A stretch of DNA of 57,377 nt, counting the filler, from Catajapyx aquilonaris (lineage: Eukaryota): the NCBI GenBank assembly GCA_000934665.2. It is 2 parts of 2 records of this genome, joined end to end, with 100 filler letters (N's around TTAATTAATTAA, not from the genome) between each part and the next. Parts side by side here need not be neighbours in the genome. Positions count along the whole stretch, not along the records: positions 1 to 28,576 come from JYFJ02004897.1; 1 more part is not named here. The stretch is one strand, 5' to 3'. The notes under the pieces were generated by a model, which made no database searches, was not told where the DNA came from, and saw nothing but the letters and a program-made list of their open reading frames with translations. Shown one piece after another: positions 21,889 through 24,666 of the stretch. The position numbers were made by a program, and so were the translations under genes. How positions within the stretch are numbered: position 1 is the stretch's first letter; each line of letters begins with the position of its first letter.

Positions 21889-24666
21889 GTAAAATGAGGT
21901 TCCATGGGCTCCCTACTGCCTCCAGAAAATGACTCCTCTCCTCGTTTTTCCTCAATTTGTTACATGTCATGAATTCATGTAGTAGTGAAGGTTCCAGCAT
22001 AGCATTTCATATTAATGAGAGGAAAAAAAGGAAGGGACTGCATGTTTCTATATCTCTTTTTTCAAGATGACAGATAAAATCATTTGCTGATGAGTGTGCT
22101 GACAGGATCCAGATTTGGTCATTTCCAGAGGGCAACACTTGATTTTATTTTTGAGGACCCCAGGATTTCACTTGTGTTTATGTCCGTGATCAGAGAATGT
22201 TGAAAAAATGTAGATGAGAATTGATCTACCCTTTTCAAGCCATTGGAAACAGAAGGAGTTCGACTCATGTCAGCTCGATGCCTTCAAGATTTCAAGATTG
22301 GATTCATGAGTCGGGCTTCTTGCCTGGGCCATGCGTTACTTGGCCCTCCCTCCCTAACATCCACCACTATTTTTTAAACGCATTTCTTTCTCAGTTGCTT
22401 CCTCAGAACTAAGAAAAGAAAGAAAAAAAGCATCCTCTTACCATTTTCACTCCTCTCTACCCCCAAACAATAGCAAAAGCGTTATTGCGCGTAGGGCACA
22501 CTCTTGATTTTATAATTGCGCTGCGCATTGGGCTGGGCTGGGTGGGGGTTAGAAGGATTTTGCGCTTTGCGATGTTTCTTATTAATTTTTTTTGTTTATT
22601 GGCAGGGAGCAAAATCAACTATTTCTGAATCCTTGCTCAGAATATAATATCAATGTGGTTTTGCTAAAGGAGCAGGAAGGTTGGATTTGCTCACTGCCAA
22701 TGCGCAACATGGCGAAAAACCAGTTGCTTTCTGTCACCAGGAAGTCGCTGCAAGTACATGGTTAAAGTTGTTAATTAATTTGCAGTGTGACTACAGAGTG
22801 ACAGAAGGTTACTGCTGCGCGCACTGCGGCCATCTTTTTCAGGATTTTTTTTCTCAACCTACACCTACCAGATTGTCCTAAAACCCCTTGTTTCGATTTT
22901 CTCAACCTCCACAATCCCACTAAAATGGCTTGGAAAGGTTTTTTGTTGACCGTCCCCTAGTAGGCAGTTATTTTCCCTATGGATTTTGTTTGGTCTTCCA
23001 ATGTATGCACATGATTGAAAAAATAGATAGGGAAAGGCCATTGCTGAAGTGAAAATGTTAGCCCGCTGAAAATGACCTGTGCCCATTAACAAGATTTTCT
23101 GAGAGAAAGAAGCTTGTTGGTTTTACAAGCATGATAAGCAGGTCGCAAAGCAGCAGAGTCTTGCACCACAAGTGAGAAGCCAGATAATTTGTCAAAATCA
23201 GAGCGGTTTTTCAGATTAGGTCCACTTGTTCTTTGACTCCACCTGCTTTAGTGGCCTGTAAGCTTAACTTTTGTGCTAGTTAGTAAGATCATGAACCAGT
23301 ATTGGACACCAGAACACTAATGGACTATCTTCTTATTCTTTTTTTCTCCCCTGCTCAAAGTATGTAGATGTCAAAATGTTGAGTTCCGCAGCAACCACCC
23401 AGCGGAGGGAGACTTTGCGAAGGCGAGAAGCTGTGTAAGAAGTACGTTTGGAGAGAGAGAGAGAGAGAGGGAAAGGTGCTCCTGGGGTAACTCGAAAAAG
23501 TCGCGTAATACTGAACCAAAATGAGAGAACACCATCCTTTTTTTGGCCTCGTGTTTGGTTTTTTCCTTGGCTGTGGGGTTTACTCTGCCCCCTGATTGCC
23601 AGGAAAGGTAAAGTAACATTACTTACCAAAAAAATTAAAATGGAAGTCAGTGAAAATGAAAGGAGTGGTTGTTGATATCTCCAAATTGACAAGAACGTGG
23701 AAAATCAGGAGGACGTGTCATTGCCCAACAATTTTAAGACACCTATTGGATTGTATTGACCCCTCCTTTCAACAAGGCATTTTTTTGTGCCATGTTTGTT
23801 AACGAGTTATTTCCTTTACCTTCTTTGGTTTCTTTGTTTTCATGCGCAATAGGGCGACTTTTAGACAGGGCTGGCCAATTGCGCGAACATGCTGCGCAGT
23901 GCGATTTTTTTACATAATTTTTTTATTTGTTTTTGAGGTTGGGGCTGGGATTTGGGAACTTGCTCTTGAAACGAAGCTTGGAGGGCCTTGCAGTTCAGTA
24001 GTTTTGGCATTTGAAGTATTTTATACCAGTATAATGGAATTGGAAGGCTGCAAGCTTCGTTGAAGGAGATGCGCATTTGCTACTGGGACAGGCAGGCATG
24101 CATTTTGACATGTGTATCTAAATCCAGTGCTTGGCAGAAAAGCATGAGTTTGCGAGGGATTTACACACACAGTAAAAAAACATGTCTGATTGTCCTCGAC
24201 GCGCTTCGTGCGACTTTTGCCTGTTTACAGTGAGGCGGGAAATCTTAAATGCTGCTCTTGTTTCCGGCAGGTTGCGCAATTTTTAGTGCATAAGAAGTGT
24301 TGGAATGTGGAAGAGGGGAAGGAATAATTCTCGGTTTAGACAGGGTTCAATCCCCTCCTCCTTTTTATGGTGGCAGAGCGATTTGCAAAGAGTTTTTCTA
24401 ACTGAAACTTTTCCTTTGGGCGGAATCCAAGCCTGAGTGGCTTCAGCGAAAGCATAATATTGTTTCTAATTCACGGTTAATTTTTTATTTGTTTTTGTGG
24501 TCCAATTTCCCTCATACAGGCATGAAGGTGGTGTGAACATGAATTTTTCTAATGCTTGTTTTTCTCTTCCTCCTCCTTCACCCCCTTCTCTACTTCCTCA
24601 ACTCCCAACCGTCCTTTTCGACAAACCAATCAAACACTCACATTACACAAAACATAACTCACGCAG
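21889..24666 (+). promoter_or_regulatory. Putative regulated (detained/retained) Ogt intron with an internal decoy/poison exon
   Basis: Same position as vertebrate OGT intron 4; weak donor, internal 3' splice site at 23360/23367, clustered weak donors, atypical terminal acceptor. Confidence 0.6.

Follow-up and report, generated by a model that had tools for sequence, protein, structure and literature searches.

A conserved internal 3' splice site in the exon 4/5 intron of the O-GlcNAc transferase gene of Catajapyx aquilonaris: a candidate decoy exon

Introduction

In Catajapyx aquilonaris, the locus of O-GlcNAc transferase (OGT) raises the question of whether the splicing feedback that limits OGT in mammals has a counterpart in invertebrates. 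Mammalian O-GlcNAc homeostasis involves the regulated retention of OGT intron 4, which is organised by a decoy exon, and the published element is a vertebrate one (PMC5588854). We analysed a stretch of 57,377 nucleotides (57 kb) of the Catajapyx genome (assembly GCA_000934665.2), hereafter the window, whose + strand carries the OGT gene according to the translations of its exons. The phase-0 intron between the equivalents of exons 4 and 5, 2778 nt long (21889-24666), contains at 23314-23370 a conserved motif with all the parts of a 3' splice site, followed by a candidate cassette. We ask here whether the two together constitute a decoy/poison exon.

The human OGT decoy is described as having two 3' splice sites, two 5' splice sites 7 nt apart and a stop codon; its splice sites are required for retention of intron 4 and are bound by U2AF, and its inclusion increases with high O-GlcNAc (PMC12017769, PMC6097662, PMC7373989, PMC7261177). 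The 7-nt spacing of the two human donors is given in PMC7373989 and PMC12017769, and the target of a morpholino shows a decoy donor reading GGTAAC (PMC7373989). Park 2017 reports conservation of the intronic splicing silencer (ISS) region down to jawless fish and the absence of an ISS-like element from Drosophila OGT (PMC5588854); for Drosophila sxc, changed intron retention is mentioned in passing (PMC11765297). No description of a decoy exon in an invertebrate OGT gene was found in the full-text literature, subscription journals not being covered.

Results

Anatomy of the internal acceptor

The block at 23314-23370 (+ strand) consists of a branch point motif ACTAATG (23316-23322, including CTAAT at 23317-23321), a pyrimidine tract with 29 pyrimidines in 32 positions (23325-23356) and the sequence ATGTAG/AT. 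Two AGs 7 nt apart (23360 and 23367) follow the tract. The first belongs to an AAG (23358-23360) that may serve as a tandem acceptor, and the second to a TAG acceptor (23365-23367). All the motifs that a first-pass annotation of this DNA had proposed, namely CTAAT, the tract, AAG, TAG, five donors and a (GA)n run, were found at the positions given there.

Within the 57 kb, only four regions of the + strand reached 29 pyrimidines in 32 positions. Two of these lie inside the OGT intron, one being the internal tract, preceded by CTAAT and followed after 2 nt by an AG, and the other the tract of the terminal 3' splice site (24553-24600). When the 3252 AG sites were compared for pyrimidine content, the AG at 23360 was unmatched. 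The internal acceptor therefore exceeds what chance would produce. As a separate observation, AATGTAGATG, present at 23352-23370, recurs in the upstream half of the intron at 22198-22216 (22207), where it is not accompanied by a pyrimidine tract.

The terminal 3' splice site (CAG/GC, 24526-24666, + strand) is built differently, with a distal CTAAT at 24541-24545, a tract ending 66 nt from its AG and an AG-free zone of 139 nt. The internal acceptor had been thought to be the stronger of the two, and this was half right: the terminal tract is equally strong, and it is the distance to its AG that sets the terminal site apart. AG-free zones before exon 5 had a median length of 100 nt in 34 loci (range 31-243), compared with 20-90 nt at five other acceptors of the window. 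The distant branch point and the long AG-free zone may thus be a conserved handicap, possibly favouring retention.

Conservation of the block in other OGT loci

Metagenome contigs were scanned with the peptide of exon 5, which yielded 80 OGT loci, referred to below by L numbers. None of them is a close relative of the window, since the DNA identity of exon 5 was at most 82% (about 80% in the loci bearing the block), and a plain blastn search of these loci with the window intron gave no match at E 1e-3. The likeness of the block surfaced by eye and by profile, after an all-against-all comparison of the introns had shown short conserved islands. The block was found conserved in the same intron of four loci (L001, L011, L027 and L039), which make three distinct sequences, L001 and L011 counting as one. 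In the alignment of these four loci with the window, ACTAATG, TATT.T.TT.T, CCCC and ATGTAGAT were invariant in all five, and TGTAG/AT was invariant in the four closest loci.

We then used nhmmer profiles in order to measure this likeness. A leave-one-out profile built on L001, L027 and L039 placed 23314-23370 at the top of both strands of the 57 kb with E 0.0013, the next match having E 7.4. A four-sequence profile run against the window and the 80 loci gave, beyond its training sequences, nothing better than E 0.86, which indicates that the profile is not a generic detector of 3' splice sites. Diverged look-alikes with the same layout were seen in L040, L016 and L038, and the block could be followed through a seven-sequence alignment. 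L047 and L066 have in common a 52-nt island of 90% identity that starts with ACTAATGA and ends with TGTAG. The element precedes exon 5 by 636-1320 nt in each of the nine distinct sequences; the window and L039 have the same value, 1299 nt. Apart from the element, the introns of the window, L039 and L011 had only low-complexity runs as common words.

Conservation in related species had been put forward as a point on which the idea could fail. The branch point, the tract and the TAG were conserved and the AAG was not, so that the three conserved parts are presumably the functional ones. TGTAGAT was also considered as a free-standing motif and was rejected, as it occurred 7 times for 6.95 expected in 113.9 kb of introns.

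Other arrangements were observed in the same collection. In L047 (about 3248-3300) and L066 (7156-7206) the element occurs as a variant in which a perfect GTAAGT separates tract and TGTAG, and a donor-like GGTTAGGTT stands within 17 nt past the AG, a layout resembling a micro-exon or a recursive site. Three loci of another lineage, L002 (intron 892-913), L003 (intron 977-1002) and L008 (intron 884-909), have in common an invariant AAAGTCAGTAAATGGTATGAGC with a pair of donor-like GTs spaced 10 nt from each other; about 90 nt further downstream comes GGTAGTTTCAGG, which is likewise invariant. These introns are retained in RNA contigs, and the arrangement is possibly a decoy of that lineage's own. 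In L064, on a 93-kb contig, exons 4 and 5 are contiguous (9932-10198) and the intron is missing, through either intron loss or retrocopying.

Downstream donor-like sites and stop codons

Weak donor-like sites follow the acceptor at a distance of 67-240 nt on the + strand. Two donor-like GTs 7 nt apart (23435 and 23442) are found in TGT/GTAAGAA/GTACGT (23435-23443), followed by the (GA)n purine tract (23451-23471), by AAG/GTGCTC (23476) and GGG/GTAACT (23487) within 23476-23488, and by AAG/GTAAAG (23608) and AAA/GTAACA within 23608-23618. AAG/GTAAAG had the best predicted U1 pairing of the region (-7.9 kcal/mol). One possible form of the candidate cassette, with a donor end that is not established, runs for 119 nt from the TAG acceptor to GGG/GTAACT (23368-23486).

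Inclusion had been predicted to disrupt the reading frame, and this held throughout. Whichever of the two AGs was paired with whichever of the five GTs, ten combinations in total, a premature stop resulted, nine times within the cassette and once ten nt into exon 5; the TGA at 23380-23382 from the TAG acceptor and the TAA at 23436-23438 from the AAG acceptor were both confirmed. In-frame stops were also present past the acceptor in L001, L011, L027 and L039. The open reading frame past the acceptor was conserved in neither length nor sequence across the loci compared.

GGTAAC occurs 118-274 nt past the acceptor in the four closest taxa, and at 218-274 nt in L001, L027 and L039. Purine runs precede it in three of these four taxa, and their placement in L001 and L039 resembles that of the (GA)n tract of the window, which is suggestive only. 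A comparison of L001 with L011 contained too few differences to reveal constraint on the cassette.

Several other candidate features of the intron were rejected. A hairpin between the pyrimidine tract and the (GA)n run was present in the minimum-energy fold of the window, with z = -0.91 (28 of 200 shuffles equal), and did not form in L039 (z 0.02) or L001 (z -1.31). A coding role was discarded as the longest stop-to-stop frames, of 123, 86 and 85 amino acids, had no Pfam match. The Rfam matches RUF6-5 (24.5 bits, gathering threshold 70) and MIR161 (21 bits, gathering threshold 90) were taken as sub-threshold chance matches. Scattered short repeats containing TGCGCA flank the candidate cassette (22480-22600, 22700-22715, 23842-23924 and 24261-24278), and one pair of them, 22561-22592 and 23893-23924, is 78% alike.

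The intron in RNA of the same organism

RNA of Catajapyx was available from one RNA-derived run (X1), in the form of contigs with a depth for each; the results below refer to the part of its matches that was listed. The main contig (3909 nt, depth 57) contained the joints 24863 to 24944, 25033 to 25322, 25740 to 26012 and 26622 to 27422, all across GT..AG introns, so that the introns 24864-24943, 25034-25321, 25741-26011 and 26623-27421 were removed. In the same contig, the tail of the OGT intron (24178-24666, 489 nt, + strand) was unspliced and continued into exon 5 (24667-24863). Four small contigs with exact matches lay inside the intron (21911-22231, 22669-23019, 23070-23398 and 23945-24170, 1227 nt in total), the third of which passes the candidate acceptor unspliced. 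The depth was 0 over the introns 25034-25321 and 25741-26011. Coverage of the 2778-nt intron next to neighbours of depth 0 argues against DNA contamination and for its selective presence in RNA. The OGT intron was thus partly kept while four downstream introns were removed, as in intron retention, with an internal start near 24178 being possible.

Two readings suit the start of the main contig at 24178: transcription of a short OGT RNA may begin there, inside the intron, or the assembly may have broken within an RNA that retains the intron. Past exon 5, an in-frame Met comes only after about 215 codons, so that an RNA starting at 24178 could encode only a short OGT with few TPR repeats. Inspection by eye of the sequence near 24171 for a promoter revealed a CAGT core alone, with no convincing downstream element.

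The intron in RNA-like contigs of other invertebrates

Among 72 loci that were classified, 43 were RNA-like, with at least 150 codons open from the start of exon 5; we infer their RNA origin from the missing neighbouring introns. Forty of them were informative for the exon 4/5 junction. Fifteen were spliced there. In eleven, an insert of 230-2641 nt came after exon 4, and 10 of these 11 had 35-214 codons open before exon 4 or an open frame reaching the contig start; the insert of L062 corresponds to a 229-nt intron displaced by a single base. In a further eleven, 103-2319 nt of intron sequence preceded exon 5. All or part of the exon 4/5 intron was therefore kept in 22 of the 40, with 850 or more codons open past exon 5, and no other downstream OGT intron was retained in any contig examined. 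The intron is thus present in the RNA of Catajapyx and of many other invertebrates.

Individual contigs are of use here. L017, which is spliced, and L018, which keeps a 1741-nt intron, come from the same species and are 99.5-100% identical. L008 ends in AATAAA and a poly(A) run. L016 is RNA-like, contains the element and keeps the intron. The remaining three of the 40 (L005, L012 and L055) have cassettes inserted between exons 4 and 5 (74, 145 and 170 nt), in which translation stops after 2, 35 and 8 codons; for these three loci there is no genomic sequence, and the cassettes have no likeness to the window. In L046 (399-1154), 756 nt follow exon 4; they open with ATGGAG in place of GT, and the 3' splice site at their end is normal. 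When the inserted sequences of L005, L012, L055 and L046 were compared with all loci, only self-matches and one weak match between L055 and L073 were found.

Gene context

The exon preceding the intron, equivalent to exon 4 (21820-21888, + strand), ends in the donor AAG/GTAAAA, and its peptide is 100% identical across many OGT loci. Exon 5 (24667-24863, + strand) has a translation ending in ARIFDR, its 3' end being set by the joint with the intron at 24864-24943, and its product aligns with human OGT from residue 178 onward (solved chains). The intron, defined by the translations, the human OGT alignment and the RNA-derived contigs, splits the peptide between EEAK (EAK in the shorter form) and ACYLKAIE. 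We take this to be the codon at which human OGT intron 4, at the exon 4/5 boundary, is placed, and the intron would then be the positional equivalent of vertebrate intron 4; the mitochondrial OGT isoform presumably diverges at the same residue.

The joined downstream exons form an unbroken OGT reading frame, a model that is backed by the four GT..AG joints of the RNA-derived contig. The product of the exon at 27413-28177 scored 397 bits with PDB 5A01, which we take to be Drosophila OGT, and 324 bits with human OGT. An X1 contig runs for 1350 nt past 28174 with sequence outside the stretch compared. The exons for the first ~158 and the last ~170 residues of OGT were not found in the window (1-21800 and 28178-57377 examined), so either they lie outside it or the flanking introns are very long.

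Discussion

A candidate decoy exon and how it would act

We favour the reading that the retained OGT intron of Catajapyx contains a decoy/poison exon that is the functional counterpart of the vertebrate one, to which we give a probability of roughly 0.55. In this model, 23314-23370 would be a functional conserved internal 3' splice site, equipped in mid-intron with a near-optimal ACUAAU branch point, a long tract and UAG. Together with the weak donors downstream it would define a short non-coding cassette with stop codons in every form. If the acceptor is used in this species, as the conservation of its parts suggests, U2AF and U2 would bind there and U1 at the weak donors, forming a complex on the cassette similar to that of exon definition. 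This complex would compete with the pairing of the true intron ends, aided by the handicap that the distant branch point and tract would impose on the terminal 3' site, and in this way would cause the intron, or one half of it, to be left unspliced in part of the RNA. Occasional inclusion of the cassette would introduce an early stop, and that mRNA would be lost. Retention and inclusion would both lower the amount of full-length OGT, and retention would be expected to respond to O-GlcNAc.

The first-pass annotation had called the element equivalent to the human OGT decoy. The gene, the conserved acceptor block, the stops and the retention of the intron in RNA agree with that proposal, which loses ground on other points: no junction read was found in the one run, the AAG is not conserved, and conservation of the donors could not be demonstrated. 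These belong to a series of observations that weigh against our reading. On the side of conservation, the element was present in just nine distinct sequences, weaker members counted, and the membership of L038, L040, L016, L047 and L066 is based on weak scores (E 0.86-8.2, whole set) and on position. The element was absent from most other loci with enough intron, such as L002, L003, L008, L009, L018, L024-L026 and L032. The AAG acceptor is specific to the window among the taxa compared. Past the AG, the body of the cassette could not be aligned between taxa.

The donors are a further difficulty. The annotation had seen them as a cluster, and all five GTs are indeed present. However, 31 donor-like GTs were counted in the intron (~1 per 88 nt) and 6 in the 300 nt after the acceptor (about 1 per 47 nt), which is just about twice the density of the rest of the intron, and clustering is therefore unconvincing by itself. 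Sharing of hexamers after the acceptor reached at most five of nine taxa and was matched in 202 of 300 shuffles, so that the cluster is not clearly beyond chance in either respect. Across the nine taxa the sharing of donor motifs was not significant and no single donor could be called conserved. The 80 loci included no vertebrate OGT intron; with the 25-nt morpholino target, the sole vertebrate stretch compared, only GTAA and the 7-nt donor spacing were common.

The RNA data raise their own objections. No X1 contig among the matches listed joined 21888 to 23361/23368 or elsewhere, and the junctions from a donor to 24667, for which a search had also been proposed, were likewise missing from this one run. 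As contigs drop rare forms, this is silence rather than absence. Exon 4 was uncovered in X1 (gap 21835-21910). The contigs of the upstream part of the intron were shallow (depth 1.4-6.5) and could be nascent RNA; the depth before exon 4 (21301-21834) was similar to theirs, so that these contigs argue only weakly for retention of the upstream 2.3 kb. The jump to a depth of 57 at 24178 could reflect an internal start site instead of retention. Among the RNA-like contigs of other species, L056 looks genomic, and the insert of L046 is ambiguous: exon 4 may be joined there to an internal acceptor, the remaining intron being kept, or the donor may lie 6 nt further downstream.

Alternative explanations

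Much of this evidence would also be produced by an ordinary poison cassette, whose acceptor is used while the handicapped terminal 3' splice site causes retention, with no decoy action. Conservation of the acceptor and stops in all forms are expected on that account as well; long AG-free zones are general before exon 5 (34 loci, median 100 nt; five other window acceptors, 20-90 nt), many taxa without the element still keep the intron in RNA, and stop-bearing cassettes are spliced into L005, L012 and L055. Against it stands the vertebrate gene, where the same layout acts as a decoy and the splice sites are needed for retention (PMC6097662, PMC7373989). We consider this account rather unlikely, while the data presented here do not separate it from the decoy reading. 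Removal of the intron in two steps through the internal acceptor, that is, a recursive or nested splicing site with no regulatory meaning, is improbable. It would suit L038, where the AG is directly followed by GTTAG, L047 and L066, with the donor-like GGTTAGGTT 5-17 nt past the AG, and possibly L046, if exon 4 is joined there to an internal site while the remaining intron is kept. The AG is, however, followed by AT in the window, L001, L011, L027, L039, L040 and L016, so that joining of exon 4 (ending in AAG) would not rebuild a 5' splice site. Measured against AG/GTRAGT, the window has TAG/ATGTCA and AAG/TATGTA, and only L038 comes near with AG/GTTAG. At only 2.8 kb, this intron is much shorter than those in which recursive sites are mainly known.

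The tract might instead be a platform for pyrimidine-tract proteins, acting as an intronic silencer and never spliced, since it is conserved base by base (TATTATTTTCTCTCCCCC) beyond the needs of a generic tract and holds UCUU-type repeats. Invariance extends to ACTAATG and the AG, which is suggestive of recognition by the spliceosome, and we give the silencer little credence. Still less credible is an alternative last exon, in which the acceptor would lead to intronic polyadenylation and to a short protein made of the first TPR repeats only. Stops do occur soon past the acceptor, and an ATTAAA is found just past the 23608 donor; yet X1 contigs extend beyond (23945-24170 and 24178 onward), a poly(A) tail at this place was seen in no contig of any species, and the reading frame past the acceptor is conserved in neither length nor sequence. 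Equally remote is the reading as an ordinary intron in which splice-like motifs cluster by chance. Cryptic sites are common, this intron holding 31 donor-like GTs and several decent acceptors, and the donor cluster alone is within chance. For the acceptor, in contrast, chance is already disfavoured by the leave-one-out E of 0.0013 in the same intron, in the same orientation and at the same distance from exon 5 as in other taxa, by a tract that is one of four of such strength in 57 kb, and by related loci in which exon 5 has only ~80% DNA identity and the rest of the intron cannot be aligned.

Comparison with known systems

The decoy reading gains from comparison with systems already described. 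The gene, and presumably the position of the intron within it, are those of the vertebrate system. The candidate has in common with the vertebrate OGT intron 4 decoy/ISS (Park 2017, PMC5588854; Parra 2018, 2020; Tan 2020; Govindan and Conrad 2025) an internal cassette with a good acceptor, a stop upon inclusion and an intron left unspliced while its neighbours are spliced. Closely spaced sites occur in both, the two candidate AGs of the window and two of its donor-like GTs each being 7 nt apart and the human 3' and 5' sites 3 nt and 7 nt apart, respectively. The window candidate would measure 67-247 nt, compared with 143-153 nt for the human decoy. The conserved part differs, being the acceptor in the window and, in the published human work, the 5' sites with the region conserved to lamprey.

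The decoy exons of SF3B1, ARGLU1, DDX39B and SNRNP70 (Parra 2018, PMC6097662) are likewise conserved cryptic cassettes with stops and multiple competing splice sites, in introns of more than 1 kb. They were defined by junction reads under a block of nonsense-mediated decay and by reporters, whereas the window candidate is defined by sequence, conservation and retention. Recursive splice sites and RS-exons (cited in PMC7373989) similarly have a branch point, a tract and an AG far inside an intron. The present case differs in the short intron and in that no GT comes directly past the AG in the window or in five of the eight related distinct sequences.

Implications

If the decoy reading is correct, the conserved site and the widespread presence of the intron in invertebrate RNA would make the origin of this nutrient-sensing splicing feedback older by hundreds of millions of years. 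We suggest tentatively, as a possibility we regard as doubtful, that self-limitation of OGT through the exon 4/5 intron and an internal decoy/poison exon is an ancestral bilaterian circuit and not a vertebrate invention, with the arthropod-type tract (UAUUAUUUUCUCUCCCCC) and UGUAG as the docking site of a dedicated O-GlcNAc-sensitive splicing factor. A candidate for this factor would be a member of the SFSWAP / suppressor-of-white-apricot family, which has been named in the human system. The Catajapyx element would also provide a second example of the layout that is independent in sequence, and would thereby help to define which features of a decoy matter, the candidates being the strength of the internal acceptor, the weakness and clustering of the donors, and a handicap at the terminal 3' site. 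OGT feedback would then be open to genetic dissection in invertebrates.

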